From the NCBI GenBank assembly GCA_963797555.1, contig CAWCPV010000007.1, positions 148,085-212,084 of the forward strand: a stretch of 64,000 nucleotides of DNA, written 5' to 3'. A program made the translations under genes and the position numbers. The stretch comes from an uncultured Gammaproteobacteria bacterium. Lineage in GTDB: Bacteria; Pseudomonadota; Gammaproteobacteria; CAWCPV01. Below the pieces are notes generated by a model. That model saw only the letters and a list, made by a program, of their open reading frames with translations. It ran no database searches and was not told the origin of the DNA. Positions 23,890 to 56,460 of this stretch are shown here, piece after piece (the stretch's first letter is position 1; the number at the start of each line of letters is the position of its first letter).

Positions 23890-25704
23890 ATGCCGAAAGT
23901 CCGTAAAGGCTCCCGCTCCCCCTCCCTGGTGCCGAAAAAGCTCACCCGGGAGCGGGACCAGGTGCTCGAGTTCGTGCGTCGGGGTCAACAGCTCGCGAAC
24001 GTTCTCGATGACCCCGGCCTCAGCGGGGAGATCGACCAGCTTTCCGCCAGTGCCCTGAAGCCTTTTTTGTTCGTCGTCGTGGGCGAGGTCAAGTCCGGCA
24101 AGAGCAGCCTCATCAACGCTCTGCTGGAGGCCCCGGTGTGCGCCGTGGACAGTGCCCCCTGCACGACGCGTGTGCAGGAGATCAGCTACGCGGAGGAGGA
24201 GAGCCGCACCGAGGTCTCCGAGTTCGAGGAGCACCTGCACCTGCCCCATGCCATCCTGCGGCACATCGCCATCGTCGACACTCCCGGCACCAACTCCATC
24301 ATTCGTGAGCACCAGCGCATCACCGAGAACTACATCCCCCAGAGCGACCTGGTGCTGTTCGTGTTCTTCGCGAAGAACCCTTACACCGGGAGCGCCTGGG
24401 ACTTCCTGCGCTACATCAAACACGACTGGCAGCGCAACACCCTGTTCGTACTCCAGCAGGCGGACCTGCTGGATGCCGGGGAATTGGAGCGCACGCTATC
24501 GCTGGTCAAGCAGCAGCTCGCCGAAGAGAGCATTGCCGAGCCCGTCGTCTTCCCGGTCTCCGTGCTCACCGCTGAAGGCTTGGACGTGCTGCGCGAGTAC
24601 CTGCGCATCGAGGTGGTTCAGGGGCGGCAATTCAATAAGAGCATCTCGCTGACACACAACGTCCTGCGTTTCTTGCGCCGCCTGGAAGCCGCCTTGCGCG
24701 ATCACGAATGCCTCCTGCAGAACGATGAGACGTTGCTGGGCGAGCTGCGCCAACTGGCCGTCGGGTTGGGGCCGGAAGCGGACCAGGAATACGCGGCCCT
24801 GACGGCGAGGGCGCGGCACTACGCGGACGAGGCGCGACAGTGGCTGTTCGGGCAGGCCGTCGCGGCCGGCAGCTCGGGTGCTGATGTTGCCCGGGCCGGC
24901 TGGAGCTGGCGGGACTGGCGCTCGCTCCGGGAGCGCATGCGGCGCCTCGGGGCGGCTCTCGCGGAGCGCGCCGCGGTCGGGGAGGCTCTGTCCAGCGGCT
25001 GGGACAGGTCGCTGCGTACCGCCGAGCGCTTCAACCGGCTGCAGCTCGACCTGAACCGCTGTCTGTTTCGGGCACAGTTGCGGCGTATCGACCTCTACCG
25101 ACAACTGAAACGGCAGGTGGAGCAGCAGCTCGCTGCCATCGCCGCCGATCCCCCGTGCCTTGCGAAACCGCTCGACGATGCGCTCGCGCGCGGGCGTCAG
25201 CGAACCCTCACCCGGGCCCGCGACGCGGTCCAGAGCCTCGGCGAGCTCGGCCTGGAGGGCTCCATCTCGCGGCTTCCCGCGCTGAGCGCGCTGAGGCCCT
25301 GGTCGTCTGTCTACGGAGTCGCTCAGGTTGGTGCCGGGGCGGCTTGCCTGGTCGTCGGCTACCGCCTGGACGATCTGCTGGCGGGCTTGCTGCTCGGCGT
25401 GGTGGGCTATCTGGGAGCCGGGTACGCTCTGGCCCGTCGGAGCCGGGCGCGTATCGGCGGACAGGCCGCGGCTGCGCTGGAGAAGAGCATCGAGGACGTC
25501 GACCGGCGGCTGCGCGAGACCCTCCTGACCCAGCCCCCCGAGCTGCAGGGCGCCATGCAGGATACCGTGGGCCGGTTCGAGCGCGACCTCGAGGAGCGGC
25601 GGGCTCGAACCGAAGAGCTGCTTCCCTCGGTCAACGCCTTGCGCGAGGACATCAAGCGCTTTCAATCGGAGGTGTGGGCCGATGCGGTGGAGGGTGACCA
25701 GTGA
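23890..25704 (+). CDS. Bacterial dynamin-like GTPase (BDLP), paralogue 1
   Basis: Dynamin-type G domain: G1 VVVGEVKSGKSSLINALL, G3 DTPGTN and a QQADLL block, followed by long helical stalk-like regions. Confidence 0.75.
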   Translation: MPKVRKGSRSPSLVPKKLTRERDQVLEFVRRGQQLANVLDDPGLSGEIDQLSASALKPFLFVVVGEVKSGKSSLINALLEAPVCAVDSAPCTTRVQEISYAEEESRTEVSEFEEHLHLPHAILRHIAIVDTPGTNSIIREHQRITENYIPQSDLVLFVFFAKNPYTGSAWDFLRYIKHDWQRNTLFVLQQADLLDAGELERTLSLVKQQLAEESIAEPVVFPVSVLTAEGLDVLREYLRIEVVQGRQFNKSISLTHNVLRFLRRLEAALRDHECLLQNDETLLGELRQLAVGLGPEADQEYAALTARARHYADEARQWLFGQAVAAGSSGADVARAGWSWRDWRSLRERMRRLGAALAERAAVGEALSSGWDRSLRTAERFNRLQLDLNRCLFRAQLRRIDLYRQLKRQVEQQLAAIAADPPCLAKPLDDALARGRQRTLTRARDAVQSLGELGLEGSISRLPALSALRPWSSVYGVAQVGAGAACLVVGYRLDDLLAGLLLGVVGYLGAGYALARRSRARIGGQAAAALEKSIEDVDRRLRETLLTQPPELQGAMQDTVGRFERDLEERRARTEELLPSVNALREDIKRFQSEVWADAVEGDQ

Positions 25705-25784: not shown

Positions 25785-26095
25785 CCAACCCTGCAACGTG
25801 CGCGTCCTGAATCTCGGGATATCGGCTTGCACGGGCATGACGTTTGGTACTGAACATGGCTGTCGTCCCAGGACGGCAAGGTGTGGACCGATGCGGTTCA
25901 CGACCACCCGTGAGCCCCCGCGCCGGTTTGGCGGTCCTGATGACCTGCCGGACGTCTTCCGTCTCGCCATGAGCCGTCCGGCCAGGCGTTTGGCCGCAGG
26001 TTCACGCTTACCGGCCACTCCGACAGCGGCCCGTGCTACCTTTGACTCCGGCCGGCGCAGCAGCGCGCCCTTCGAGTCCGCAGCGTACACCGACG

Positions 26096-27856
26096 ATGCT
26101 ACGTATTGCTAAATCCCTGTTCGACAGGAGCCTGGTCCCGAGCGCCCTGACCCAGCAGCGGGATCAGTTGCTGGGCTTCATACGGCAGGGCCAGCAGCTC
26201 GCCACCGTGCTGGGTGAGTCTGCGCTCAGCGCCGAGATCGACCAGCTTTCCGCCAGTGCCGTGAAGCCTTTTTTGTTCGTCGTCGTGGGCGAGGTCAAGT
26301 CCGGCAAGAGCAGCCTCATCAACGCTCTGCTGGAGGCCCCGGTGTGCGCCGTGGACAGTGCCCCCTGCACGACCCGGGTGCAGGAGATCAGCTACGGGGA
26401 GGAGGAGAGCCGCACCGAGGTCTCCGAGTTCGAAGAGCACTTGCACCTGCCCCATGCCATTCTGCGGCACATCGCCATCGTCGACACTCCCGGCACCAAC
26501 TCCATCATTCGTGAGCACCAGCGCATCACCGAGAACTACATCCCCCAGAGCGACCTGGTGCTGTTCGTATTCTTCGCGAAGAACCCCTACACCGGGAGCG
26601 CCTGGGACTTCCTGCGCTACATCAAGCACGACTGGCAGCGCAACACCCTGTTCGTGCTCCAGCAGGCGGACCTGCTGCCTTCCGACGAGCGCAAGCGCAC
26701 CGAGGAGCACATCCGCGAACAGCTCATCCAAGACGGCATCGAGAACCCCGTCGTGTTCGCGGTGTCGGTCAAGACCGGCAACGGGATGGGGGCGCTGCGC
26801 GACTATTTGCGCGCCGAAGTGATAGAGGGGCGCCAGTTCACCAAGGTCCAGTCCCTGGCGAATAACCTCATGCACTTCGTCGGCGGTCTGGACAAGCTGC
26901 TCCACGTACACGAACGGCTCAACCAGCACGACGAGATCCTGCTCGGAAAGCTCCATGGTCTCACCCTGAACCTGCAGGCCGAGGCCGAAGTAGACAGGCA
27001 GGTCGCCGCCATGATGGACGCCTGCCGGCGCCGCACCGAAGAAGCCGAGCGGCGCCTGCGCAAGCGCTTCCAGGGCCGCCATTCGTTCCTGGACAAGCTC
27101 GACACCCTCAAGAACGCGCTCGGCAGCGGGCACGAGGTACGGCAGTGGCTGGCCGATTTCTTCGCCCAGGTGCAGGCCGAGATCAGCCACGCCCTCTATC
27201 AGGACCAGTTGCGCTACTTCTCGGAGCTGCACCGCCGCTCCCAGGAGTTGGGTCAGCAGATGCTGGAAGTCCTGGCCAACCGTCCCGGCTACCTCAAGAA
27301 ATCCGCCTCGGATGCGCTGGCGCGCCGGCGCGACCAGACCCTGAGCGAGGTCCGCCAGCGCCTGGCCGCCCTCGACGACATCCGCCTCGAGGAGACCGTG
27401 CAGCCGCAGGCCTCGCTCGGGCGCCTGAACCGCCTGATCCTGGCCTACCGCCTGGCTCAGGGCGGGGCCGCGCTGGGGGTGCTGGTCCTCTCGGTGCATT
27501 TCGGCGACCTGTTCAGCGGCCTCATCCTCGCCGGTGTGAGCTACCTGGGCGTCGGGTATGCGCTGTTCGCGCGCAACCGCGAACGCCTGGAGACTCGATG
27601 CAGCCTGGCGTTGCAGGCGAGCCTAGCCGACCTGGAGCAGCGCCTGCGTACCGACATAGGGGAGCACCTGAACAGCCTGAAGGCGGTGGGCGACGGCGCC
27701 CTGACCCTGTTCGAGCGCGACCTCGGCGACCGGCGCAAGCAGACCGAGACCCTGGTCCGCTCGGCCCGCGAGTTACGCGACGGCATCCAGCGCTTCCAGG
27801 CGGCAGCGGCCGCGGCAAGGGCGGGCGGCGGGGCACAGACGGAGGGGGGGGTATGA
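26096..27856 (+). CDS. Bacterial dynamin-like GTPase (BDLP), paralogue 2
   Basis: Start at the ATG at 26096 (MLRIAKSLF...). The G domain is nearly identical to paralogue 1 over ~440 bp (26237-26677 vs 24031-24472); the rest of the protein is diverged (~50% identity). Confidence 0.75.
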   Translation: MLRIAKSLFDRSLVPSALTQQRDQLLGFIRQGQQLATVLGESALSAEIDQLSASAVKPFLFVVVGEVKSGKSSLINALLEAPVCAVDSAPCTTRVQEISYGEEESRTEVSEFEEHLHLPHAILRHIAIVDTPGTNSIIREHQRITENYIPQSDLVLFVFFAKNPYTGSAWDFLRYIKHDWQRNTLFVLQQADLLPSDERKRTEEHIREQLIQDGIENPVVFAVSVKTGNGMGALRDYLRAEVIEGRQFTKVQSLANNLMHFVGGLDKLLHVHERLNQHDEILLGKLHGLTLNLQAEAEVDRQVAAMMDACRRRTEEAERRLRKRFQGRHSFLDKLDTLKNALGSGHEVRQWLADFFAQVQAEISHALYQDQLRYFSELHRRSQELGQQMLEVLANRPGYLKKSASDALARRRDQTLSEVRQRLAALDDIRLEETVQPQASLGRLNRLILAYRLAQGGAALGVLVLSVHFGDLFSGLILAGVSYLGVGYALFARNRERLETRCSLALQASLADLEQRLRTDIGEHLNSLKAVGDGALTLFERDLGDRRKQTETLVRSARELRDGIQRFQAAAAAARAGGGAQTEGGV

Positions 27857-28388: not shown

Positions 28389-28637
28389 GTGGATACGTCC
28401 GCATTGGCGAAGTGGTACGTCAATGAAGCCAGATCGGAGGACTTCGCGGCCTGGGTGCAGCAGGAAGCTGAGCTGCACATCAGTACATTGACCGCGGTCG
28501 AAATGCGGTGCCTCCTTGCCCGGCGTCGCCGCAACCGCGAGCTGACCCAAACGCAGCACACGCGTTGCACCTGGAAGTGGTGCGGTTCGACTGAGCGTTC
28601 ACGGCGTCGGCGAGGACCGCTCCGGGGCCGCGAATAA
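28389..28637 (+). pseudogene. vapC: VapC-like PIN-domain toxin, truncated or frameshifted after ~60 residues
   Basis: GTG start. (V)DTSALAKWYVNEARSEDFAAWVQQEAELHISTLTAVEMRCLLARR matches the PIN N-terminal half (D-T-S/N acidic residue, LT..E). The C-terminal half with the remaining catalytic acidic residues is missing. Confidence 0.5.
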
Positions 28638-29337: not shown

Positions 29338-30652
29338 CTACCCGAAGGCGAGTTGGTAATACAGCTGCTCGAAGGCGCGGAAGCCGGGACAGAGCCGGCT
29401 GAAGCGCAGCTTCAGTCTGCGGGCGGTGGCGACCAACCGGGCGGCGAGGTACATCAGTTCCTGGAGGACGGTCTTGATCCGCCGGCGCTTGGCCGGATGG
29501 CGCAGGGGAGCCGACTCGCCGGTCAGCCCGATGAGCCCGATGAAGCGCAGGATGTTGTAGGCGAACACGGCAAAGGCGAGCACCAGGTCATTGGTGTCGA
29601 ATTTCCCGGAGGGCAGCCGTTCGATATCGAGGTCGGTCTTGAACTCGCTGTGGAACTGCTCGGAGGTCCCGGTACAGGGCGACGATCTCCGCGTCCGGAT
29701 AGGCGAGCGAGGTCCACCAGCCATCGAGCTCCAGCTCCGGTACCAACAGCGCCTGGCCCTTCTTGTCGATGGTGCGCTCGGTCACCCGCATCACCCGGCG
29801 AACGTGGTAGGTGTGCTCCCGATGGGGGTGCTCCTCGACGACGCTGAACAGCGCCACGCGCTTGCCGGGTCGGGGTGTCTCCCATGCCCCTTGGCGCTCG
29901 GCGCGCTCCAGCCAATGGGCAGGGTCCTCGCCCCGAGGGTTCCACTGGATAATGAAGTCCACCTCCTCTTCGAGGTAGCGCAGCCGGTTCTCCAAGGCGT
30001 CGTGGGCGCTGTCCTGGCGCACCAGCAGCGGCAGTTTGGTCAGGCGCCTGGCCCGCGGCAGGATGCGCTCCCAGACCTAGCCGAATTCCTTCTGACTGTG
30101 CTGCTTGCCTTCTCGCAGCTCACAGCCGACGCACCACCCTTCGGTTCCCACGTAGGTCGCGATCGGCGCATAACCGTCATAGCCGTGGTAGGTGCGCGAG
30201 ACTCCTTCTTGCTTGGTCCCGGAGTTGTCCATGGGAAAGACATCGATGTCCACCGGCACATGACCGGTCTTGAGCGCACTGACCGGTGCCTTGGCGTTGA
30301 CCATGAACTCGATATCGGCCTCGTCAATGACCTCCCGCAGGACCGCTGCGTGCTCGTCGAGACGCTGCCTCAGCGTTTCTGGCGAGGGTACCCGCTCCAG
30401 CCCCAACGCCTGGCGGAAGAAATCGTCCTCTCGGACGTTGGAGACCGCTTCGAAGTCGCTCTTGCCCAAACACATCAACCCCAGATAGCTCTTGGCTACG
30501 TCTTCATGGGAGATGCCGTGGCGTAGCGGGATCGCCTCCTTCAGCGCCTTGCCCAACCCGCTAAAGCGGTTGACGCAAAGACCGACCAAGGCCAGACCAG
30601 AATGGGAGGTGTAAAATTCCTCATCGGACTGCTCCAAGATGAACCGCTTCAT
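29338..30652 (-). mobile_element. IS1380-family-like transposase gene split into three ORFs (pseudogene or indel errors); element ends not resolved
   Basis: Consecutive minus-strand ORFs 30077..30652 (N-terminal part), 29588..30022 (middle) and 29338..29724 (C-terminal part, ...HSEFKTDLDIERLPSGKFDTNDLVLAFAVFAYNILRFIG...) together give a ~438-aa DDE transposase of the IS1380 type. Confidence 0.55.
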
Positions 30653-30719: not shown

Positions 30720-31507
30720 TTGCGGCCATCCGCTGAGACGCGAAGTCACGGAATCAGGAATGCCCTATTCGTACGCGTGCCGTCGTGTCTCTACCAAGCT
30801 CCTGACGAATCGTGGGAAGAGTTCAGTCAGCGAGTGCGAAAAGACGGGTCGATAGAACATCAACTTCCCCATGCTCTCGAAGAGGACATCTACTGTCTTG
30901 AGAAGGAAATCCCCGAACGAAGCACGTTTTACAGAGCCCGGAAAGGGTTTGAAGAGGATGCTTGGGGGCACAAGCAGCCATACAGGGGTGCCGAGATTGG
31001 GCTGCCATCACCTGAAAAGGCATTACCAGGACGGGCGAATAAGGGGGGCGAACCAGTCCTATACCTCGCGAAGGAAGAAAGGACAGCCGTCTCTGAGATT
31101 CGGCCAGCTCGCGGACTACTGGTCTCTGTAGGGGAATTTGCCACCCGTCGCTCCACTCGCCTGCTCGACTTTGGTCAGCCCCATTGCGGAACCCGATCCT
31201 TTCGTGGACGACCCACTGCGTTACTTGGATGGAGTTCGCTGGGCTGATGAGAGCTTTCGCTTCGTCTTTGTCCCAACCGTTGGAACGCGACGATACAACA
31301 GAAGATTACCGCGCGTCGCAGTGGCTTTCCGCCTGGATCAGCGATCACGGATTCGATGGTATTCTTTATCCCAGCGCAATGAATCCGAGCGGTGTGAACT
31401 TGGTGCTGTTTGATCCAAGGGCCGCGTCGGCCGTGGACTCGAATCTCCGAAGGATCACAGATGTTCGGTGGAGCTACAAGGGATTTGGCGATGGAGATGA
31501 AGAGTAA
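30720..31507 (+). pseudogene. RES-domain toxin (NAD+-targeting family) with one or two frameshifts
   Basis: ORF 30720..31247 holds the Arg/Glu part (FYRARKG...YRGAEIGLPSP...EERTAVSEI). ORF 31184..31507 in another frame holds the Ser part (DHGFDGILYPSAMNPSGVNLVLFDP). Confidence 0.55.
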
Positions 31508-31608: not shown

Positions 31609-33673
31609 TTGATGGACTCAGTCGCGAAGCAATTAGAGGACATCCTGCGCGCCTACCAGGCAAAACCCGAGCTTATCCGCGAGCACTACAATGGTGAGGA
31701 ATCTGACCGGCGAGGCTACGCTGGACGCCCCCTGCTGGAGCTGATCCAGAATGTTGAGGATGCCCTCGCGGACGCGGAACAGCGGGGCGATATGCTGCTG
31801 GCGCTCACCGACGGAATGCTCACCATCGCCAACCAGGGTACTCCGTTCTCGGAGCGGGGCTTCCAGGCGCTTTGCGATCGGAATGACAGCCCCAATCGCC
31901 GCAGCCAGCGTTTCGTGGGCAGCAAGGGCACCGGATTCAAGGCCGTGCTCAACTGGTCTGACGGACTGGAAATCTACTCGGGGGCCATCGGGGCGCGTTT
32001 CGACCGAGTTGAGGCGGCAACCCGGATCCTTGAGGCTGTATGCGATGAGGGGCGTACGCGGCTCGATGCAGACGGGCACTGGCCAGACTCCCACATGCCC
32101 CTCCTGCGGGTGCCGCTACCGGCGATTCCGGACCAGCGCATGTGTCAGCTCCTTGGCGAAGGCTGGGCAACCGTCATTCGGCTTCATTTGTTCCCCGACA
32201 GGGTGACTGAAGTCGGCGACCAGCTGCGCTCGCTGGATCCGCGCGACCTACTTTTTCTCAGCCACCTCGGCGAGGTGACTCTGCGGCTGGACGGTGTACC
32301 GCTCACCTGGACACTGCACCGGCATCGGCATCGGCAAACCCAGGGCGTCGAATCCCACGACCTAGAGGTGCTGAAGGACGGCAGGACACACGCGAGCTAT
32401 CGGGTGCTGCGGAGACGCCTGCCGGATGTCCGCCCGGAGGAATCCGATGAGGTCGGGGACGTCGAGGTCGCGCTCGCCTACTGCACCGACGCGGGCGACC
32501 AAGCGACAGCGAGTTACGTCTACAATTTCTTCCCGACAGAGTGCCTTTCCCCCTTGCCGGCGATAGCGATTCACGGGACCTTCCTGCTCACCTCTGACCG
32601 CAACCACTTGCGCAAAGACGATCCGAGCTACCAGGACGCCTTGATCGCGGCCCTCAGCGAGCTGTGCGCAGAGTACCTGATCCCGGAGCTCGTGGATCGT
32701 TTCGGACACAGGGCGCTGAACTATCTGCGGCCTGGGCCGCAGGTGGCGGGCTCATCAGAGAGTGTCGAGCGCGTGCTCAGCGAACGGTTGGTCGGTACGG
32801 TCCGGTCGATGCCTTTCGTGCCCACGGTGAGCGGTCGCAACGTGGCTCCTAAGGACCTGCGGCTGTGGAGCCATAGGTTGGGAGATCTGCTCGACGAGCA
32901 TCCCGATGCGCCAGACGAACCGGCGCTTCCCCGTCCCGCTTGGTGGCGGCGCATGCTTCGTCCGCTGTCCGCGGGCGCCACTCGGAGAGGACGCTCAAAT
33001 GACCCATGGGATCCAGCCGTCCTGCACCAAGCATTGAAGGATTTGGCGGGGCGGCGGGATCTCATGGAAGACGCCTTGGCGAGACTGCTTGAGAAACTCG
33101 AACGATCGCAGGAGGACGCCCATGCGTACCTTCATAACAAGGGGATCAGCGAAGAAGACATCAAGCTCTGGCACCCGCCGGAAACCACGAAGCCGGATCT
33201 TCCACTGTCACCCCCAATTCGGCATCCCGAACCCGTGCCCATGGTCCCTCCGACCGAACCCGAACCTGAGCCAATTCCGCCTACGACCGGCGTCCCCGCC
33301 GTTACCGTCGGGGTACCGGCGCCCGAGCCGGTGGTTCTCCCTACGGAGATTCCGCTCGTGACGGTTGTCCCCCCGACCCCGCAGGTACCGCCCAATGTCC
33401 CCCCGAGCGGGGGGCCCGGCCGGGACCAGTCCGCTCGCGAGCACGGCACGACCGCCGAGGCGTGGCTTCGAAAACAGCTCAGCGATCTGTTCCAAGGGCA
33501 GTGCGAAGTCAGCGACAGACCAGACCGTAGCCAAGGCGGCGAGTCAGACATCGTCATCCGGAGGAACAGTGAAGATCTGCTGCACGTCGAGGCCAAAGCG
33601 GTCGAGAGAGGCCTAATCTACTGGAGCGAGGGTGAAGTTGAGAAGGCATTGCAGTCGGGAGACAGGTACGCTA
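31609..33673 (+). CDS. Sacsin-like GHKL (HATPase_c_3-type) ATPase + DUF3883 protein, 3' end cut by the IS66-like insertion at 33674
   Basis: N-terminus LLELIQNVEDALAD...LTIANQGTPFSERGF...FVGSKGTGFKAVLNW matches the sacsin/HSP90-like Bergerat fold. A Pro-rich linker follows, then a DUF3883-like nuclease-like block (GGESDIVIRR...LLHVEAKAVERG...). The last 10 codons of ORF 31609..33702 are IS-derived. Confidence 0.65.
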
Positions 33674-33765
33674 GTAACCGTTCAGACCCTCCCACCAGTT
33701 GATCGATGCGTTAAGAGCGCGTCCAGCGCAGCAGAGCCGCTCGGCTTGTCGTACACTCCCGGCTC

Positions 33766-34484
33766 ATGGATCAAGAGCCCTCTATTCCGCAGGCGATCAC
33801 GGCGAGCGGCCGGAGCTTTACCGAAGAGGAGATCTCCGCCATCGTCCGAATGGTGTCGATGTGCGTGGGCCTGAGTCGTTTTGAGCTGGCGCAGACCATC
33901 TGTGAGCTGCTGGGGTGGAGACGGGACAACGGAGCCCTGAAGTCCCGCGAGGGTCGGGATCTACTGGAGCGGTTGGAAGCTCGGGGGGATCTGAGGCTTC
34001 CCGCCAAGCGCACGGGCAGGCCCAAGGGGCGGCGCACCTGCACTGCGCAGACCGATCGGGGCGAACGCCGCGGCGAGATTGCCGGTGCGCTGCAGGAGGT
34101 GGCCCCGGTGGAGCTTCAGTTAGTGCGCCAGGCCGAGGGACGGGCATTGTGGCGCGAGCTTCTCGCGCGCTATCACTACTTGGGCTATGCCACACCCTTT
34201 GGGGCCCAGTTGGTCTATCTCATCTGCTCCCAGCGCCGGGAGGGGGAGGTGTTGGGCGGGCTCACCTACACCAGCCCGGCCTGGCGCATGCAGGCCCGCG
34301 ATGCGTGGATCGGCTGCGCTTTGCCGGGACCTGCTACCGGGCGGCCAACTGGTGCGAGGTGGGCGAGACCAGCGGACGCGGGCGCATGGACCGTGCGCAC
34401 CAACGCCATGGCAGAGCGATAAAGCGGGTCTTCCTCTACGCTCTGCACCCGCAGGCCAGAGAGCGCCTGCGCGGTGAGCGCTGA
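33766..34484 (+). pseudogene. DUF4338-like ORF of the IS66-like element (copy A, internal deletion at ~34313)
   Basis: The N-terminal 180 aa are identical to copy B. The C-terminal block RFAGTCYRAANWCEVGETSGRGRMDRAHQRHG...* is present, but ~190 bp between are missing relative to copy B. Confidence 0.6.
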
Positions 34485-34486
34485 AC

Positions 34487-36057
34487 TCAAGCGGGCGCAG
34501 GAAGCGGCGGTGCCTCAAAGCCGCGGCGTCGGTGGGCGAGGACATCTCTGAGATAGCACAGCGGGGAGCTCAATCGCAGCCGAGAAGTCTCGATCACACT
34601 GGCGAGCAGCGCCAGCGCCCGGCTGCCTTGTTCGCTGCGGGTCCCCTGGCTGATGCGACGCAGAATCACCCAGTGACGCAGCGCCCGCTCCGCCACGTTG
34701 TTGGTCAGCGGCAGCTGAGGCTCATCCAACACCCGGAAGATCGCCCCCCAGTCGTTGAGCAGCTCCTTGCCCAGCGCCTGGGCCTTGTCATAAGGGCAGC
34801 AGCTCATGCGTTCACACAGGGCCGTGGAGCTCGTTCGAGCTCGCCCGGGTGGGCTTGCCGCAGGGAGCCGCCCGGTCCCTCGCGGGCGTGATAGACGGCC
34901 TGCATCAGCGCATCGAGCAGGTCATAGACCGCCTGGCCGTAGCCCTGGAGGGTGGGCGAGAGGCAATCCCTCAGGCCCCGGGCCTTGCGAATGAGATGCG
35001 CCCAGCAACGCAGGCGCTTGGCATAGTCCCGATAGACCTGGTACCCATCGCTCATCAGATAGCCGCAGAAGAGATCCTCGATGAGGTTCTGAAACATCTC
35101 TTTGGCGCGAGAGCCGACCAAGAACAGCGCCGTCGAGGCCGAGATGAACACCCATAACCACAAGGGCTCTCCCCATTGCTTGTGCGGTGTCTCATCGGCA
35201 TGCATGAGGGCCGCTTCCAGCAACTGGGTCACCAGCTCATCCTCGACCGGCTCGCAGGCACGGGCGGTCTCCATCACGCATTGGTGGAGGGTGCCGATGC
35301 CGAGCGCCAGCCCAAACACCTCGTGCAGGAACTCCCGGACCAGGCGGATGGACAGGCGCATCCGAAACCGCAGCCAGACGATGAAGGCGCACAATCCCGG
35401 CCCCACCAGGCGCCACTCGCCAAGCTCCACCCCTCGCCAGCATCCCAAGTGCTCGGGCGCGCGGTGCGGCGCCTGCCGGGTCTCATGACCACAGTCGCAA
35501 CGGCTCTGGTAGTATACCTGCCGCGTGCAGGTCAGGCGCAGCCCCGGCGCCTGCTCATCGCCAAAGACCAAGTCCAGCCTATCAAAGGCGGTGTAGGGCT
35601 TCGCCTGCTCAGGATTGAGCGCCCCACCACACAGCGCACAACTTCCCGGCCGATGATGGTCCCAATCGGTGACTGTCAGCTTCTGGGCGCGCCCGAATCC
35701 CTGGGAGCCAGGCTGCCGGCCCGCTCGGCGCTGCGTCCCTGAGGTCTTGCCACTCGTGTCCTTTGCGCCCTTCTGGCCGCCAGCCCCGGGGAGGCCATCC
35801 TCCTCAGAACGGCTCTTGGCCTCCTCGTCCTCAGGACCGGCGTCGGCCTCTTCGTCCTCCCGCGCACGCAGCCAGGGGTCTTGACTGCTCGGCGGACGAG
35901 AGCTATTGGAGGGACTCTGATTGAGCCGCTCCCACGCTTCCTTGAGATCCTGCAGCAGGCGGATGCTCAGCGCTGCCAGCGCATCGGGATCCTTCTGCCT
36001 CAGCTCCAGAATGCGCTCCTCGCTGAGCTGACGAAGGTCGTGCTCCTTGAGCACCAT
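34487..36057 (-). pseudogene. tnpC: IS66-family transposase (TnpC-like), copy A, frameshift near 34805
   Basis: ORF 34804..36102 matches the copy-B transposase (zinc-finger CxxC..CxxC, MHADETP DDE block) up to ...HPGEL. The last 105 aa are in ORF 34487..34807 in another frame. Confidence 0.7.
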
Positions 36058-36304
36058 GATTGTGTGTGACAGTGAGGTCGAGGAACATCCTGCCAAGGGC
36101 ACCCAACTGTCTCACGCTGGAACCGTTTTGTCCAGCCCTCCGGGTCAAAATATTCCAGGGGGGTGAACGGTTACCTCATCGAGTGCAAAATGCCGGAACC
36201 GCCCGTCACGGAACCAGTTGGGATCAATTCGATTTGCTGCCAAGTGGTTGTGAAATAGTGAAACTGATATTTGACTGCCGGCGACCTACATGAGCGCAAT
36301 AGCG

Positions 36305-42842: not shown

Positions 42843-43319
42843 CTAGAACCCGAACTTCTTTCCGAGCAGATGATCCAGGGACAGCTTCCCCGGTCCGTGC
42901 AGCAGCAAGACCAACAGCATCAGCCCCCACACCTCGTGCTGCTCCAGGCCCGCTGCCATCAGCCCCGGATAAGAGATCACCGCGATGATGTTGAACACGA
43001 ACAGCACGAATGCCGCGAATCTGCCCGCGAGCCCCAGCACCAGCAGCACCGGGAAGAACAGCTCGGTGAAGGCGCCCATGTAGGCGGCCACCTCGGGCGG
43101 CAGCAGCGGCACGTGATACTCCTCCTGAAACAGCAGGACGGTCGTGTCCCAGCTCTGGATCTTGCTGAGCCCCGACCTGAAGAAGCCGTTGGCCACCCAC
43201 AGCCGCAACGCGAGATCCGCCAACGGGGACAGGAAATCCAGCCCGCGGTACACCACCTTTACCCAGCCGGCGGCACGCCCGAACAGCGACGGGGGCCCTG
43301 ATTGCATGACAGCGCTCAT
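42843..43319 (-). CDS. DoxX-family membrane protein (BufD-like position)
   Basis: 158 aa with four TM helices and the DoxX pattern; overlaps the DUF2063 gene by 4 bp. Confidence 0.7.
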   Translation of the reverse strand: MSAVMQSGPPSLFGRAAGWVKVVYRGLDFLSPLADLALRLWVANGFFRSGLSKIQSWDTTVLLFQEEYHVPLLPPEVAAYMGAFTELFFPVLLVLGLAGRFAAFVLFVFNIIAVISYPGLMAAGLEQHEVWGLMLLVLLLHGPGKLSLDHLLGKKFGF

Positions 43320-43975
43320 GTTTCACCTCCGATAGCGAACACGGGTTCCTCGTTCGAAGCCACGAATTCACTGCTGAAAAACTCCACCAAAGTGCCGCGT
43401 AGCACGTGATGCTGCAGGCAGGCGCTCAGGTCGAAATCCGATTGCACGTCCAAGGCGGATTCGCAGGCCTGGGCAAACGTTCGGTCCGCGCCCAGCTCCC
43501 GTAGCAGGGTGAACTCGGCTTCGCCGAGCGGCTCCAGCTCGACCTCCAACCGCTGCCGGGCGACGAGGATGCGAACGCCGCCCTCGGCAAGGTCCACGAC
43601 AGGATCGCCTTCGAAGCCCTCCTGATTGACTTGCCAGATGCGCAAGATGGGGTACGGAGACCGCACCAGGCGGGTCGCAGGGTGCAGGCGAAAACGAAGT
43701 CGTCCGTAATGGTCGGGGTCGAACGCCGCGAGCGCCGCCAGGTCCATCGGAGCGTGGCTCGCCTCGTGGAACACCCGGTGATAGGCCCACTCCAGCCGCG
43801 CAACGTCCGGCAGATAGGCTAGCTCCGCGGCGGGCGCCAACGCCTCCAGGAACTCGGCCAACTCTGCGCCGAAGTCGTGGAGGTTTCCGGATCGGGACGG
43901 GTGGGCCGGGACATAGCTCCTCGCCGCATAGCGGAAGAAGTCCCCGCCCACGAGCTTGTGCACCACCGGGTACAC
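43316..43975 (-). CDS. DUF2063-family protein (BufC-like partner of an MNIO enzyme)
   Basis: 219 aa in the DUF2063 pattern (putative DNA-binding-fold domain), immediately downstream of the DUF692 gene. Confidence 0.65.
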   Translation of the reverse strand: MYPVVHKLVGGDFFRYAARSYVPAHPSRSGNLHDFGAELAEFLEALAPAAELAYLPDVARLEWAYHRVFHEASHAPMDLAALAAFDPDHYGRLRFRLHPATRLVRSPYPILRIWQVNQEGFEGDPVVDLAEGGVRILVARQRLEVELEPLGEAEFTLLRELGADRTFAQACESALDVQSDFDLSACLQHHVLRGTLVEFFSSEFVASNEEPVFAIGGET

Positions 43976-44122: not shown

Positions 44123-44991
44123 TCACGCGGCGAGCGCACGGCGTTCCTCCAGGCAACTTTCCGCTCGGCGGGCCTCGGCCAGCAGCACGGCGAGAGGCGG
44201 GATGTCGGCGTCCCACTCGATGAGCGTCGGAGCCGCCCCGAAGCGCTCCAGGGCGCAGCGATAGAGCGCCCAGACCGGATCGGCGACGCGCCGGCTGTGG
44301 GTGTCGATGAGAATCTCTCCGTCCTCGAAGCGGTTGACGCTGTAGCCGGCCAGATGAATCTCCTGCACCGGGGCGACGGGGATGGCGTCGAGGTAGTCGT
44401 GCGCGTCGAAGCCGTGGTTCGTCGCGCTGACGTAGACGTTGTTCACGTCCAGCAGGATCCCGCAGCCCGAGCGGCGGGAGACCTCGGACAGGAACTCCGC
44501 CTCGGGGATCGTAGAGTCTTCATACTGCAGGTAGCTCGATACGTTCTCCACCAGTATCTGGCGACCCAGGAATTCCTGGACCTGCGCGATGCGCTCCGCC
44601 ACGTGCCCGAGCGCTTCCTCGGTGTAGGGCAGCGGCAGCAGATCGTTCAGGTAGCGCCCCCCACGGAGCTCCAGGACAGATGCTCCGAGACGAGGAACGG
44701 CTCGACGCGCCGCGAGAGGGCACTGAGCTGCTGCAGGTGCCCCACACTCAGCGGGTCTGTGGAGCCGAGGGACAGCCCCACCCCGTGCAAGCTCACGGGA
44801 TAGTGGGCGCGCACCCGCTCCAAGTAATCCAGCGGCGGGCCGCCGCCGAAGTAGTTCTCGCTGTGCACCTCCAGCCATCCGACGGCTGGAAGCGTGTCCA
44901 GCACCTCGCGGTAATGGACCGCCCGGAGGCCGATCCCGGCACGCGCCGGGACCGGCTCCAGCTCGCCGCGCTTTGCATCCGGAGCGAGCAT
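44123..44991 (-). CDS. DUF692 / MNIO (multinuclear non-heme iron oxidative) enzyme, BufB-like, apparent frameshift near 44640
   Basis: ATG at 44989-44991 (MLAPDAKRG...[13 protein letters not shown]...EVHSENYF). The C-terminal half (...[19 protein letters not shown]...[20 protein letters not shown]...) is in ORF 44123..45220. Both halves match DUF692 (xylose-isomerase-like TIM barrel). Confidence 0.7.
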
Positions 44992-44999
44992 GACCCGCC

Positions 45000-45266
45000 T
45001 CACCCCTTCTTCGGCTCCAGGCTGCCGCCCACGATCTTCTCGCAGGCCCCCTTGGGCAGATAGATCCACGACATGGGGTCGCTGTCCATCTTGACCTGCC
45101 CGGCACAGGCGTGGGTGCTGGTCTGACAGTCGTTCTTGCCGGCCTTGACGACGCCGTAACACTTCTCGGCTTTCTTCTCGGCGGCCACGGCCTGTCCGGC
45201 GCTCGCCAGGCCCAGCGCAACCACGCCAGCCATCGCGGAAATCAGAAGGGTCTTCGTGTCTCTCAT
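45000..45266 (-). CDS. bufA: DUF2282-type bufferin-like RiPP precursor (Sec signal peptide + four-Cys core)
   Basis: [29 protein letters not shown], then a core with four Cys (EKCYGV, NDCQ, HACAG, GACEK). Its stop at 45000-45002 lies 9 bp before the DUF692 start. Confidence 0.7.
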
Positions 45267-49408: not shown

Positions 49409-50326
49409 ATGAGCAAGAAGAAGTCGCACCAGCATCTCTTCAATGAGGAATGGGTAAAACAAGCCAGCGCCGATCGGAACCCAGCTTCATGGGCCACCCG
49501 GGCACTCGATGACTCCACCGGGGGGCAGGTCTACCTAGCCACCTTGGAGCAATGGTTTGATGCGTACCCGTTGAAGACGGACGATAAGAGTCAGATGGCC
49601 GGTCGGCTTCGGAACCTAAAAGAAAATGAGGCTCACCTCGGTGCCGTGAATGAACTAGTGTGGTGGCAATTGATGAAACGGATGGACTGGAAAGCTGAAC
49701 CCGTGCCCTGTAAGAAAGGAGTTTACACGCCAGACTTTCTGGTTCGGCATCCTCACAGATTGCATGTGGAGGTCACCACTGAGAACGTGTCGGCTAAAGA
49801 TCGCGCCGACGTACGGCCCTTAGATCACAAAGAAACGGCGCGGAGGTTGCTCAATATCGTTTGTGGCAAGAAAGGCCAGCTTTGCGCCGCAGCAGCCGAA
49901 GGCCAGCCGATCGCCCTCGCCGTCTTCGACTATACGGCATGGAGTGGCTTTGGGGCGGAGGTGGCGCGGGGTATTGCAGAGTATGTGGTATGTCCAGACA
50001 GGCTCAACGCCACGATCCCGGCCGAAGCATCGGCCATCGTGTTCGTACTCTCGCAGTTCGACGGTGAGCGGTTCAGGGTCAGCGTAGATCAGTCGGCCGT
50101 GTACCATAACCCCGTAGCCACGCATCCCCTGCCCGAATCAGTCTTCTCCTGGTTCCCCAATACCGGTTTACAGCCGAGCGTCTCTCCCCGACCGCCCCCG
50201 CATGGATATGCTTATAGTGGCTACGAGGGGGGGAACGTGGTCGAGCTCGGCCTGGGATCGAGCGTGGAATGTTGGCCTGCCGGGAAACCTGTCCGCAGCA
50301 CGCACCGAAAGTCGTCCCAACCGTAG
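49409..50326 (+). CDS. Hypothetical protein (305 aa), possible PD-(D/E)xK-like motif, lower-GC region
   Basis: ORF in a locally AT-richer segment. The segment TPDFLV...HVEVTTE resembles a D...(D/E)xK nuclease core; this is weak. Confidence 0.35.
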   Translation: MSKKKSHQHLFNEEWVKQASADRNPASWATRALDDSTGGQVYLATLEQWFDAYPLKTDDKSQMAGRLRNLKENEAHLGAVNELVWWQLMKRMDWKAEPVPCKKGVYTPDFLVRHPHRLHVEVTTENVSAKDRADVRPLDHKETARRLLNIVCGKKGQLCAAAAEGQPIALAVFDYTAWSGFGAEVARGIAEYVVCPDRLNATIPAEASAIVFVLSQFDGERFRVSVDQSAVYHNPVATHPLPESVFSWFPNTGLQPSVSPRPPPHGYAYSGYEGGNVVELGLGSSVECWPAGKPVRSTHRKSSQP

Positions 50327-50379: not shown

Positions 50380-50740
50380 TCACCCAGGTCGGGGCTGATC
50401 TGTCGCGCCGGCTGACACCTTCAACACGAGGTTGTTGACGTGTTCTCGGATCGGCTCAATGCCCTGGGCATCGTAGTCTTCTCGCGTTGGGCGAATGACG
50501 TACTTGATTCGAGAGGCTTCGTCTGTGGGCGGATTCGGGCGATCCCACGGCCGCTTCGGCAGGTTGTCTCCCCTGACGCGATGTGTCTTCCATGCCCATT
50601 CTCCCTGGACCTCCCCGTCTTTCCAGTGGTGGGCGAGGCGCGTAATAGGGTCCCATATCCATTGCACCTCCCAGTCAGCCTGAACCGGTCGACAGTCAAC
50701 TTCTGCGCCATGATGAGGTAAAAGGACGGCCATAGCGTAC
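50380..50740 (-). pseudogene. Displaced 3' end of the sacsin-like/DUF3883 gene (continues 31609..33673 in frame if the 36175-50740 segment is re-inverted)
   Basis: The reverse complement of 50733-50740 (GTACGCTA) equals the 8-mer at 33666-33673. Joining ...GAC AGG TAC GCT A to the reverse complement of 50732..50380 continues the reading frame for 118 codons (MAVLLPHHGAEVDC...) to a stop. Confidence 0.5.
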
Positions 50741-50857
50741 GTAACCGTTCACCCCCCTGGAATATTTTGACCCGGAGGGCTGGACAAAACGGTTCCAGCG
50801 TGAGACAGTTGGGTGCCCTTGGCAGGATGTTCCTCGACCTCACTGTCACACACAATC

Positions 50858-52426
50858 ATGGTGCTCAAGGAGCACGACCTTCGTCAGCTCAGCGAGGAGC
50901 GCATTCTGGAGCTGAGGCAGAAGGATCCCGATGCGCTGGCAGCGCTGAGCATCCGCCTGCTGCAGGATCTCAAGGAAGCGTGGGAGCGGCTCAATCAGAG
51001 TCCCTCCAATAGCTCTCGTCCGCCGAGCAGTCAAGACCCCTGGCTGCGTGCGCGGGAGGACGAAGAGGCCGACGCCGGTCCTGAGGACGAGGAGGCCAAG
51101 AGCCGTTCTGAGGAGGATGGCCTCCCCGGGGCTGGCGGCCAGAAGGGCGCAAAGGACACGAGTGGCAAGACCTCAGGGACGCAGCGCCGAGCGGGCCGGC
51201 AGCCTGGCTCCCAGGGATTCGGGCGCGCCCAGAAGCTGACAGTCACCGATTGGGACCATCATCGGCCGGGAAGTTGTGCGCTGTGTGGTGGGGCGCTCAA
51301 TCCTGAGCAGGCGAAGCCCTACACCGCCTTTGATAGGCTGGACTTGGTCTTTGGCGATGAGCAGGCGCCGGGGCTGCGCCTGACCTGCACGCGGCAGGTA
51401 TACTACCAGAGCCGTTGCGACTGTGGTCATGAGACCCGGCAGGCGCCGCACCGCGCGCCCGAGCACTTGGGATGCTGGCGAGGGGTGGAGCTTGGCGAGT
51501 GGCGCCTGGTGGGGCCGGGATTGTGCGCCTTCATCGTCTGGCTGCGGTTTCGGATGCGCCTGTCCATCCGCCTGGTCCGGGAGTTCCTGCACGAGGTGTT
51601 TGGGCTGGCGCTCGGCATCGGCACCCTCCACCAATGCGTGATGGAGACCGCCCGTGCCTGCGAGCCGGTCGAGGATGAGCTGGTGACCCAGTTGCTGGAA
51701 GCGGCCCTCATGCATGCCGATGAGACACCGCACAAGCAATGGGGAGAGCCCTTGTGGTTATGGGTGTTCATCTCGGCCTCGACGGCGCTGTTCTTGGTCG
51801 GCTCTCGCGCCAAAGAGATGTTTCAGAACCTCATCGAGGATCTCTTCTGCGGCTATCTGATGAGCGATGGGTACCAGGTCTATCGGGACTATGCCAAGCG
51901 CCTGCGTTGCTGGGCGCATCTCATTCGCAAGGCCCGGGGCCTGAGGGATTGCCTCTCGCCCACCCTCCAGGGCTACGGCCAGGCGGTCTATGACCTGCTC
52001 GATGCGCTGATGCAGGCCGTCTATCACGCCCGCGAGGGACCGGGCGGCTCCCTGCGGCAAGCCCACCCGGGCGAGCTCAACGAGCTCACGGCCCTGTGTG
52101 AACGCATGAGCTGCTGCCCTTATGACAAGGCCCAGGCGCTGGGCAAGGAGCTGCTCAACGACTGGGGGGCGATCTTCCGGGTGTTGGATGAGCCTCAGCT
52201 GCCGCTGACCAACAACGTGGCGGAGCGGGCGCTGCGTCACTGGGTGATTCTGCGTCGCATCAGCCAGGGGACCCGCAGCGAACAAGGCAGCCGGGCGCTG
52301 GCGCTGCTCGCCAGTGTGATCGAGACTTCTCGGCTGCGATTGAGCTCCCCGCTGTGCTATCTCAGAGATGTCCTCGCCCACCGACGCCGCGGCTTTGAGG
52401 CACCGCCGCTTCCTGCGCCCGCTTGA
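50858..52426 (+). CDS. tnpC: IS66-family transposase (TnpC-like), intact in copy B
   Basis: ATG at 50858 (MVLKEHDLRQLSEERILELRQKD... leucine-zipper-like N-terminus), CxxC...CxxC zinc finger, DDE region including MHADETP, ~523 aa. Confidence 0.8.
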   Translation: MVLKEHDLRQLSEERILELRQKDPDALAALSIRLLQDLKEAWERLNQSPSNSSRPPSSQDPWLRAREDEEADAGPEDEEAKSRSEEDGLPGAGGQKGAKDTSGKTSGTQRRAGRQPGSQGFGRAQKLTVTDWDHHRPGSCALCGGALNPEQAKPYTAFDRLDLVFGDEQAPGLRLTCTRQVYYQSRCDCGHETRQAPHRAPEHLGCWRGVELGEWRLVGPGLCAFIVWLRFRMRLSIRLVREFLHEVFGLALGIGTLHQCVMETARACEPVEDELVTQLLEAALMHADETPHKQWGEPLWLWVFISASTALFLVGSRAKEMFQNLIEDLFCGYLMSDGYQVYRDYAKRLRCWAHLIRKARGLRDCLSPTLQGYGQAVYDLLDALMQAVYHAREGPGGSLRQAHPGELNELTALCERMSCCPYDKAQALGKELLNDWGAIFRVLDEPQLPLTNNVAERALRHWVILRRISQGTRSEQGSRALALLASVIETSRLRLSSPLCYLRDVLAHRRRGFEAPPLPAPA

Positions 52427-52428
52427 GT

Positions 52429-53338
52429 TCAGCGCTCACCGCGCAGGCGCTCTCTGGCCTGCGGGTGCAGAGCGTAGAGGAAGACCCGCTTTATCGCTCT
52501 GCCATGGCGTTGGTGCGCACGGTCCATGCGCCCGCGTCCGCTGGTCTCGCCCACCTCGCACCAGTTGGCCGCCCGGTAGCAGGTCCCGGCAAAGCGGGCC
52601 GGGTCCACCAGGGTCTCCAGCAGCCAGGGACGCAGCCCATAGTGGCGCTCCCAATCCCCTACGATGCGCCGGCTGCCCAAGGCCAGCACGTGGCTCGCCA
52701 GATGAGGCACTTTCACCCAGGGCAGAATCAGGAAGCGCCCCTGATTGACGATGCGTGCGAGGTGCGCTTTGCGCGCTCTCTCGTCCCAGCCGAATCCACG
52801 CATCGCGGGCCTGCATGCGCCAGGCCGGGCTGGTGTAGGTGAGCCCGCCCAACACCTCCCCCTCCCGGCGCTGGGAGCAGATGAGATAGACCAACTGGGC
52901 CCCAAAGGGTGTGGCATAGCCCAAGTAGTGATAGCGCGCGAGAAGCTCGCGCCACAATGCCCGTCCCTCGGCCTGGCGCACTAACTGAAGCTCCACCGGG
53001 GCCACCTCCTGCAGCGCACCGGCAATCTCGCCGCGGCGTTCGCCCCGATCGGTCTGCGCAGTGCAGGTGCGCCGCCCCTTGGGCCTGCCCGTGCGCTTGG
53101 CGGGAAGCCTCAGATCCCCCCGAGCTTCCAACCGCTCCAGTAGATCCCGACCCTCGCGGGACTTCAGGGCTCCGTTGTCCCGTCTCCACCCCAGCAGCTC
53201 ACAGATGGTCTGCGCCAGCTCAAAACGACTCAGGCCCACGCACATCGACACCATTCGGACGATGGCGGAGATCTCCTCTTCGGTAAAGCTCCGGCCGCTC
53301 GCCGTGATCGCCTGCGGAATAGAGGGCTCTTGATCCAT
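52429..53338 (-). pseudogene. DUF4338-like ORF of the IS66-like element (copy B), frameshift near 52790
   Basis: ORF 52436..53338 (MDQEP...YHYLGYATPFGAQLVYLI...ARDAWI) and ORF 52429..52917 in the +1 frame (GFGWDERARKAHLARIVNQGRFLILPW...WERHYGLRPWLLETLVDPARFAGTCYRAANW...) together cover a full DUF4338-type protein. Confidence 0.6.
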
Positions 53339-53599
53339 GAGCCGGGAGTGTACGACAAGCCGAGCGGCTCTGCTGCGCTGGACGCGCTCTTAACGCATCG
53401 ATCAACTGGTGGGAGGGTCTGAACGGTTACTCGATGAGTCGTTCTACGATTGGCAGCCTCGTAATGGCGAGTTTACCGGACCGAGTGCCGCCGCGCACGA
53501 AACCGAATTCAACAAAGAAAATCAAGGCGACACCCGAGTCGGTGTTTAGCGTCGCGTAGGGCTGACTGAGCGGAGAAAACCATACTAGTAACCCACAAT

Positions 53600-55071: not shown

Positions 55072-55108
55072 AAGGATGCGACGAACGAAAGGAAACCGCA
55101 TCGCTCGG
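55072..55108 (+). repeat. REP-like palindromic repeat, copy R1 (diverged)
   Basis: AAGGATGCGACGAACGAAAGGAAACCGCATCGCTCGG; the next ~90 bp are homologous to the sequence following R2 and R4. Confidence 0.5.
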
Positions 55109-55440
55109 GTTGCGCCCGTGCCGCAATACTTGGGACGCTCTCGCCACCCCACCTCGGATCGACTCCTGGCCTTGTCGCCCGTCTTGGGCGCTGGCGACGC
55201 TTGTCCGGAGCAAGCGCGATGCGATGCACGGCAGGGCTCATCGATCTTACGGCTAGGTGCGCAGGAGGCGGTGCAGGTCGGGCCTGCTATTGGCCCCCCC
55301 GATCGCCAACTTCCCGCATCGAAGCGATGTGGGCTTTGAGCTCTCTCGCATACGGGTGCTTGGGGGACCTCGCGCAGCACCCGGTCGAGTAGCGGCTCGG
55401 CCTCCTCGAATCTGCCGACCGAGCACAGGATGACTGCGTA

Positions 55441-55866
55441 TCAAGCTGTAATGTCGACGTTGTGAGGATGCGCCTGCCACAGTGCCTCGCGGATCTCCAG
55501 CGCGCGGCGGTACGCTTGCTCTGCATCGGCCACCTGGCCAGCATCCCTTAGTAGGTTCCCCAGGTTGATCAGGCCCAGGGCCAGGCAGGGGCCGGTAATC
55601 ATATTCTCGCGGTTCGCTTCCCACAGTGTCTGGGAAATCTCCACCGCGCGCCGCAGAGCCGCATCCGCCTCGGCCACCTGGCCGGCATCCCTCAGCAGGT
55701 TCCCCAGGTTGTTCAGGGACCCGGCGAGGTCGTTGCCGATGCTCACATTCTGCGGGCTGGCCTGCCACAGCGTCTGGGAGATTTCCACCGCGCGCCGGTA
55801 CGCTTGCTCTGCATCCGCCACCTGGCTAGCATCCCTCAGCAGACCCGGGGACAGACCCCCTATTGT
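55441..55866 (-). pseudogene. TPR-repeat fragment paralogous to the NACHT-TPR gene's TPR array, bounded by REP copies
   Basis: Repeated ...AEAEQAYRRAVEISQTLWQASPQNV.IGNDLAGSLNNLGNLLRDAGQV... units. The N-terminal 28 codons of ORF 55441..55947 are REP-derived. Confidence 0.4.
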
Positions 55867-55871
55867 CTTCC

Positions 55872-55908
55872 GTAGGATGCGGTGAACGAAGGGAACCGCA
55901 TCGCTCGC
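55872..55908 (+). repeat. REP element, copy R2
   Basis: GTAGGATGCGGTGAACGAAGGGAACCGCATCGCTCGC with an 8-bp stem (GATGCGGT/ACCGCATC); it overlaps the 3' end of the RAYT gene. Confidence 0.6.
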
Positions 55909-55909
55909 G

Positions 55910-56438: not shown

Positions 56439-56460
56439 TTTCTCTCGTCCAGCTCTTTTC

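Follow-up and report, generated by a model that had tools for sequence, protein, structure and literature searches.

A probable dead copy of a Tiamat-type (TmtA family) defense gene, interrupted by an IS66-family element in a gammaproteobacterial contig

The split gene and the elements that divide it

This report concerns a 64,000-nucleotide (nt) stretch of DNA from an uncultured Gammaproteobacteria bacterium (assembly GCA_963797555.1, contig CAWCPV010000007.1, positions 148,085 to 212,084 of the forward strand), called the window throughout, and within it a gene resembling tmtA of the Tiamat anti-phage system. An earlier note on this DNA had proposed a defense-type gene here, an ATPase fused to a nuclease-like domain and disrupted by an insertion sequence (IS). 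The gene lies in two pieces. The 5′ fragment occupies 31612..33673 on the forward strand (+) and holds codons 1–687 plus base 1 of codon 688. The open reading frame (ORF) that contains it, 31609..33702 (+), encodes 697 amino acids (aa) if read from a TTG, but translation likely begins at the next codon, the ATG at 31612. At 33673/33674 homology ends, and the ORF reads on through 9 IS-derived codons to a stop (33702). The 3′ fragment, 50380..50732, is found 17 kb from the 5′ part on the opposite strand (−) and supplies the last 117 codons, from the rest of codon 688 to codon 804 and a TGA stop.

When 31612-33673 is joined to the reverse complement of 50732-50380, a single unbroken ORF of 804 codons results, and the reconstruction proposed in the earlier note, there begun at 31609, is exact. 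The closest relatives align with it across the joint. In BLASTP, the alignment with one of the two best relatives (P0008, WP_100922834.1, a 1514-aa protein of a Candidatus Thiodictyon plasmid, 48% identity) is unbroken over the junction, with GDR---YAMAVLLP...VQWIWDPITRLA against RREIPYALVILIP...VKWISEPVSRLA. The displaced 3′ piece was also found by tblastn at 50745-50449 (−), with E values of 2.6e-12 and 8.9e-18 for the queries P0008 and P0009, the other best relative. When 15 C-termini are aligned, the residues beyond the junction that are invariant in the family (W712, P716, W750 and P756) are all seen to be retained.

The interruption starts inside the nuclease domain, at 33674, where an IS66-family element begins; the gene is thus IS-disrupted, as had been proposed. 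A repeat search of the window found two near-identical inverted copies of the element, 33674-36174 and 50741-53430, which are ~99.7–100% identical. Copy A (33674..36174, −; 2501 bp) is defective: its transposase is frameshifted, with a 432-aa ORF at 34804-36102, and ~190 nt are deleted from its DUF4338/DruA-domain ORF (33766-34422, +). Copy B (50741..53430, +; 2690 bp) is apparently intact and encodes a 537-aa transposase (50813-52426, +) and a convergent 300-aa DUF4338/DruA-domain ORF (52436-53338, −). The copy B transposase scores 219 bits against NF033517 (cutoff 180) and matches Pfam DDE_Tnp_IS66.

Members of the IS66 family generate 8-bp target duplications and have inverted repeats beginning GTAA. 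The disrupting element has an IS66-type DDE transposase, two 8-bp duplication pairs and GTAACCGTTCA inverted repeats at the ends of both copies, copy A opening with this sequence at 33674. The canonical tnpA-tnpB-tnpC organization is absent from the element, which carries a single transposase ORF plus the convergent DUF4338/DruA ORF. In this it is like the single-ORF IS66 relatives, but with an extra gene. That accessory ORF lies within the element's inverted repeats and matches Pfam DruA/DUF4338 at E 8.7e-19, a domain that has been termed GNAT-like (PMC10853773).

The sequences flanking the two copies explain why the gene ends so far from where it begins. The left copy of an 8-bp target duplication, GTACGCTA, borders copy A at 33666..33673 (+) and recurs, reverse-complemented, at 50733-50740, the inner flank of copy B. 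Similarly, copy A is bordered on its inner side by CTCATCGA (36175-36182), and the reverse complement of these 8 bp, TCGATGAG (53431-53438), stands on the outer side of copy B. Two exact 8-mers at predicted positions have a chance probability of ~(1/65536)^2. Such swapped duplications, at both ends of the 14.6-kb segment 36175..50740, imply that recombination between the IS copies inverted it. Most likely, two independent IS insertions were followed by homologous recombination of the inverted copies, an inversion that displaced the 3′ end of the gene, as the earlier note had held. No convincing ORF runs across the second IS target site (36175 / 53431). Besides the tmtA 3′ end, the inverted segment carries an SDR fragment, a Zn-ADH, a GMC oxidoreductase, a glyoxalase-fold protein, a DUF2063 plus MbnB-like pair, a MIP channel, SMP-30, DsrE and a 305-aa ORF.

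Two other accounts of this arrangement were weighed. Inverted IS copies around a 14.6-kb cargo resemble a composite transposon of the Tn5/Tn10 type, in which both copies and the DNA between them would have inserted as a unit and the 3′ fragment would be unrelated to the 5′ ORF. We rejected this account, and its likelihood is next to nil: the outer flanks, GTACGCTA and TCGATGAG, are mismatched, each matching instead the inner flank of the other copy, and the ORF resumes in frame in the 3′ fragment, which aligns with TmtA relatives over the junction. The second account, that the inversion is an assembly artifact, deserves more attention. The gene would then contain one IS with its 3′ end directly after it, or both orientations would be mixed in the population. 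The inverted repeats, of ~2.5 kb, are longer than short reads, so that the orientation of the DNA between them may be a choice of the assembler if the assembly was made from such reads; an independent Logan short-read contig stops 29 nt into the IS; and the un-inverted orientation is precisely the one that gives each IS matching duplications. Against this, the contig is 619 kb long, which suggests a good and possibly long-read assembly, and IS-mediated inversions are common. We consider an artifact doubtful, although it deserves to be kept in mind. The recombination between two IS copies favored here and the artifact lead to the same conclusion about the gene, which is IS-disrupted and internally deleted whichever orientation the segment has.

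Domain architecture and membership in the TmtA family

Residues 1-444 (31612..32943, +) comprise a GHKL (sacsin/Hsp90-like) ATPase and a middle, transducer-like domain. Both motifs that had been quoted in favor of a sacsin/HSP90-like Bergerat fold are present, ELIQNVEDA at residues 43-51 and GSKGTGFKAV at residues 103-112, and the NCBIfam model NF047352 (sacsin N-terminal ATP-binding-like) matches the protein with 62 bits (cutoff 50). Alignments of 13 and 40 sequences show no variation in motif I (E43-N47-D50) or in the ATP lid (G103-S-K-G-T-G108), and Q46, H321 and R330 are also conserved and present. For the G1 box, which in GHKL proteins is D-x-G-x-G with an Asp that contacts the adenine, the family has N74-x-G76 (A-N-Q-G-T-P-F), invariant in 13 sequences; the Asn might take the place of the Asp. 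The AlphaFold2 (AF2) model of the rejoined protein has a mean predicted local distance difference test score (pLDDT) of 81, with values >90 over most of 1-440 and 610-790. With the N-terminal 450 residues as query, Foldseek against the PDB returned the N and middle domains of TRAP1, Hsp90, GRP94 and HtpG (E 1e-8 to 1e-5), with ~450-490 aligned columns for TRAP1, Hsp90 and GRP94 (E 1e-8 to 1e-6); GyrB 43K and MORC2 also match, lower. The family profile matches the crystal structures of the sacsin repeat region (SRR), 5v44-5v47, at E ~1e-5.

The ATPase module and the nuclease domain are separated, over 33061..33423 (+), by a short helical segment (residues 484-520) and a disordered Pro-rich linker (about 521-604; pLDDT <50), which relatives have too. 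The linker described in the earlier note therefore exists, but is ~80 rather than 60 aa long.

The first half of the C-terminal domain, of the PD-(D/E)xK (NOV_C/DUF3883) type, is encoded at 33424..33673 (+) and contains E616, D646, E660 and K662; the IS cuts it after Y686-A687. The acidic/Lys block reads GESDIVI...HVEAKA (D646, E660, K662), and alignment with the C-termini of 14 relatives shows that E616, D646 and E660-A-K662 are conserved. The rejoined protein does not pass the Pfam model NOV_C (PF13020, DUF3883), scoring 15.3 bits against a gathering threshold of 22.1. One relative, P0003, does (28.7 bits), so that the link of our protein to NOV_C is by transitivity. Modeled alone by AF2, the domain reaches a pLDDT of 88 and consists of a helix (5-28), three strands (48-52, 55-64 and 70-73), a second helix (74-86) and a further strand (87-94). 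The top Foldseek matches are PD-(D/E)xK enzymes, with archaeal Hjc resolvases, DpnI, the SPARDA nuclease domain, EcoRV and SfsA at probabilities of 0.97-1.00. Fold and conserved residues both bear out the description of this block as DUF3883-like and reminiscent of PD-(D/E)xK nucleases. The IS cut falls downstream of the helix leading into the fourth core strand. What the 3′ fragment contributes to the nuclease module is its last core strand together with its C-terminal beta subdomain.

Profile searches place this architecture in a family that has already been described. In PADLOC, the TmtA model PDLC03964 matches residues 2-429 over profile positions 11-425 with an E value of 7.8e-79, and eight more TmtA models match. 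The C-terminal 205 aa alone have PDLC03964 as their sole PADLOC match, a weak one (E 0.004) at positions 1404-1497 of 1538. Word-indexed protein searches for relatives gave only 6 and 2 matches, and an exhaustive HMMER search of 1.84 billion representatives was required. It found 2567 relatives, the top ones 1350-1600 aa long, with P0008 and P0009 the best; BLASTP E values against P0008 go down to 2e-127. Its record calls P0008 both a [quoted passage not shown] and a "NO VEIN C-terminal domain-containing protein". Full-length relatives match the TmtA models across up to ~1100 profile positions. A genome scan for relatives returned identities of at most 52%, with Chromatiaceae closest. On these profile matches, the protein is a member of the TmtA family, the single-gene Tiamat system, and not an unassigned candidate.

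The Tiamat system and its protein TmtA were reportedly described by Millman et al. in 2022. Tiamat is a validated single-gene anti-phage system of unknown mechanism (PMC10482375; PMC12926258) and has been listed among the single-gene systems with a PD-(D/E)XK domain (bioRxiv 10.1101/2024.10.26.620412). Our protein shares with TmtA the N-terminal sacsin/Hsp90-like GHKL ATPase with its middle domain, a C-terminal PD-(D/E)xK domain that is co-linear with the profile at its end, a Pro-rich tether and apparently the stand-alone gene, and its relatives occur in accessory, toxin–antitoxin (TA) and plasmid contexts. It differs in size and state. Even when rejoined it has 804 aa, as compared with 1063-1782 profile positions in the PADLOC models (PADLOC-DB 2.0) and relatives of 1352-1624 aa; the center of the protein is short of ~660 residues; and the ORF is split by the IS, with its 3′ end inverted. 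It is most likely inactive. The proposal of a defense-type gene has thus held as to the combination of a GHKL ATPase with a DUF3883/PD-(D/E)xK domain, but the gene is neither unassigned nor, even rejoined, intact. The profile check that the earlier note had called for was divided, with NF047352 above its cutoff and the Pfam models SACS and NOV_C below threshold.

It is useful to contrast this protein with better-known proteins built from similar domains. By profile, its ATP-binding module matches NF047352 and the sacsin SRR structures, and its C-terminal domain is of the type found in plant NO VEIN (NOV). However, these similarities are at the level of domains only, with Pfam scores below threshold, and the protein here is bacterial, single-module and defense-associated, unlike a developmental factor or a giant chaperone made up of many repeats. 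With MORC/paraMORC, MutL and the B subunit of type II topoisomerases it shares a Bergerat-fold ATPase followed by a transducer-like domain, and the general design in which an ATPase is coupled to a DNA-cleaving activity. But Hsp90-family structures match it better than MORC or GyrB, MORC2 standing only at Foldseek rank 46, and the rejoined protein has no Pfam match to HATPase_c_3 or MORC at E<=1. In place of the C-terminal endonuclease of MutL, of Toprim or of a separate partner gene, there is a fused PD-(D/E)xK domain. The analogy with MORC/paraMORC systems drawn in the earlier note therefore serves as a functional one (a GHKL ATPase plus DNA cleavage), while TmtA is closer. Finally, the type of C-terminal PD-(D/E)xK effector recurs in the modification-dependent endonucleases YenY4I and McaZI and in the Snf2-DUF3883 protein HmaA, where it is combined with PUA/DUF3427 or an Snf2 helicase, sensor or motor modules that bear no relation to the GHKL ATPase here. 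In YenY4I, DUF3883 is a catalytically active PD-(D/E)XK endonuclease domain (PMC6765204), and HmaA is a DUF3883 protein of a defense system (PMC11232893).

A role outside defense, for instance as a chaperone of the sacsin/Hsp90 type or, like MutL or MORC, as a factor in DNA repair or chromatin, might be considered given that the best structural matches are Hsp90-family chaperones, that the SRR domains of sacsin are the only solved sequence relatives, and that the Pfam domain names come from eukaryotic sacsin and NO VEIN. Yet the strongest profile match is to the TmtA defense family, and the domain to which the ATPase is joined has a restriction-endonuclease fold and keeps its E...D...ExK motif intact. 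The distribution is patchy, with relatives on a conjugative plasmid and beside TA modules, and the gene decays frequently in sister lineages, whereas a housekeeping gene would not be dispensable. We regard a housekeeping role as very improbable.

The missing central region and the state of the gene

In BLASTP, residues 2-444 align to P0008 10-467 (48% identity) and residues 484-782 to P0008 1166-1507. Between them, at an in-frame internal deletion junction (32944..33060, +), residues 445-483 stand in place of ~700 residues (P0008 468-1165), a net loss of ~660 residues that leaves the frame intact; pLDDT is low at 456-470. The lost region is nowhere in the window, where tblastn with P0008 and P0009 gave the three expected pieces only.

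To judge whether short forms occur naturally, we ran a hidden Markov model (HMM) of the family's C-terminal domain on the best 150 of the 2567 relatives. The domain is present in 46 of them, all of 1352-1624 aa and with the domain at the very end, and in none of the 52 shorter matches, which are probably fragments. Natural short isoforms were rejected on this ground, the domain having been seen among these 150 solely in proteins of at least 1352 aa. Moreover, the central region of relatives contains near-invariant Trp, Gly and Arg columns. Because of this length distribution and these columns, we infer from sequence comparison that the 804-aa form is a deletion derivative, not a natural isoform.

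It might nonetheless be argued that an 804-aa "mini-TmtA", with the ATPase and middle domain, linker and nuclease, was functional until the IS recently entered it. The reading frame is preserved across the deletion, and the conserved catalytic residues are all retained on both sides of it; both modules are folded at high confidence in the AF2 model; and the near-identity of the IS copies marks the insertion as recent, so that the ORF may have been under selection until lately. If this were true, the ~660-aa central region would be dispensable for defense, and such a mini-Tiamat would be a compact construct for studying how Tiamat operates; an active short form would define a minimal Tiamat. 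However, no other two-domain protein below 1352 aa occurs among the best 150 relatives, the cluster of this protein has a single member, the near-invariant central columns imply that the region has a function, and neighboring genes are also pseudogenes. A functional short form is thus unlikely, and we favor a deletion derivative.

Taken together, the locus very probably holds a TmtA-family gene, of the Tiamat type of single-gene defense against phage, that is now dead. It has suffered an internal deletion, the insertion of an IS66-family element and most likely an inversion as well, and it lies among other pseudogenes. A 697-aa product can still be made. Because this product is without the fourth core strand of the nuclease, without its whole C-terminal beta subdomain and without the central region, the copy is presumably non-functional.

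Several points weigh against parts of this account, in addition to the question of orientation discussed above. The deletion is deduced from relatives that are at most 48% identical, a close full-length relative being absent, and an old, functional short lineage is formally possible. The assignment to TmtA is based on PADLOC HMMs. Pfam SACS (E 0.019) and NOV_C (E 0.021) fall below their gathering thresholds, and the Foldseek E values of the nuclease domain are marginal (~1e-3). Lastly, the clamp-and-cut model set out below is an analogy only, the mechanism of Tiamat being unpublished.

By analogy with Hsp90, MutL, MORC and GyrB, ATP binding in an intact TmtA would close an N-terminal dimer clamp. 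The central region might provide dimerization, sense the invader or its DNA, or do both, and the flexibly tethered nuclease could then be licensed to cut DNA. Phage replication would be stopped either directly or by abortive infection.

The import of these findings goes little beyond annotation, since this is a decayed gene and not a new system. The ORF, deposited as a 696-aa hypothetical protein, is better labeled a TmtA/Tiamat-family pseudogene interrupted by an element of the IS66 family. As a case of defense-gene decay, the locus illustrates an in-frame deletion, an IS insertion and an IS–IS inversion with swapped target duplications, and it demonstrates that an interrupted gene can be reassembled by reading its sequence alone. 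As it has yet to be worked out how Tiamat acts, mutagenesis of full-length relatives, e.g. WP_100922834.1, could usefully target the conserved residues E43, N47, D50, E616, D646, E660 and K662.

Neighboring genes and the contexts of relatives

The surroundings of the gene bear the same marks of decay. Directly upstream, at 30720..31507 (+), lies a RES-domain toxin pseudogene, which a frameshift divides into ORFs at 30720-31247 and 31184-31507. Upstream of it no Xre-type antitoxin is found; its place is occupied by an IS1380-like (DDE_Tnp_1_4) transposase fragment (30077-30652, −). A PIN-domain fragment (28389-28637) also lies upstream of the tmtA-like gene. The TA/IS island suggested earlier is therefore real as debris of both kinds, but it is decayed, with the RES gene frameshifted and the PIN and IS1380-like genes reduced to fragments, and the segment on its far side carries ordinary metabolic genes. 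The G+C content is lower, 0.57-0.59, in two regions (30-32 kb and 49-50 kb) that were contiguous before the inversion, which is consistent with a small acquired islet.

The 305-aa ORF (49409-50326, +) would have been the convergent downstream neighbor of the tmtA-like gene before the inversion. That much of an earlier suggestion held; the further suggestion, that it is nuclease-like, found no support. The ORF belongs to a real, small conserved family, with five homologues (P0155-P0159) of ~272 aa and 34-43% identity, compared with which it is ~33 aa longer at the C-terminus. The family invariants are E82, P108-D109-F110 and E121-x-(S/T), a pattern reminiscent of a K-less PD-(D/E)xK motif. The ORF has no Pfam, NCBIfam or PDB match, its PADLOC matches span merely 20 residues, and a profile comparison with the TmtA nuclease domain gave an insignificant probability of 1.3%. 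The homologues are never beside TmtA and have unrelated neighborhoods. On these grounds we rejected the ORF as a Tiamat partner or a nuclease.

Relatives of the tmtA-like gene adjoin PhdYeFM/PIN/ParE TA pairs, and a 417-kb record (CP020371.1) has the gene for P0008 within its transfer region. Among six contexts of relatives there is no neighbor common to all. In two distant relatives, P0005 and P0015, an ARPP-1 (PF20208) gene is directly upstream (L093 8952-10001 and L095 1725-3206, respectively); in L093 it abuts the TmtA start codon, and a MerR-family gene is found further upstream in L095 and L002. The ARPP-1 gene may mark a two-gene Tiamat subtype; the window contains no such gene.

Copies of this lineage in sister Chromatiaceae are often damaged, too. 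One in a Thiodictyon metagenome-assembled genome (MAG; L006 1559-6101) keeps its full length, though broken up into three reading frames, only residues 12-175 are left in a Thiocapsa MAG (L007 9920-10408), and only residues 1-128 in Thiocystis violacea DSM 208 (L022 9974-10357). This suggests a rapid turnover of the TmtA lineage in Chromatiaceae or, for L006, sequencing errors in the MAG.

Elsewhere in the window, two adjacent paralogous genes for dynamin-like GTPases (23890-25704 and 26033-27856; 604 and 607 aa) match Dynamin_N at E ~1e-22 and share a 300-nt stretch that is 88% identical. Bacterial dynamins are sometimes counted as defense genes. Inside the inverted segment, the DUF2063 gene (43316-43975) and the MbnB/TglH/ChrH-family gene (44123-45220; E 7e-70), both on the reverse strand, form a pair of the type found in clusters for the modification of ribosomally synthesized and post-translationally modified peptides (RiPPs). 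Farther along, direct repeats at 55403-55827 and 59625-60881 have a period of ~144 nt and are 62-78% identical, and repeats of 63-147 nt lie ~800 nt apart at 55089-56842; these repeat families probably represent a repetitive protein-coding or intergenic array.

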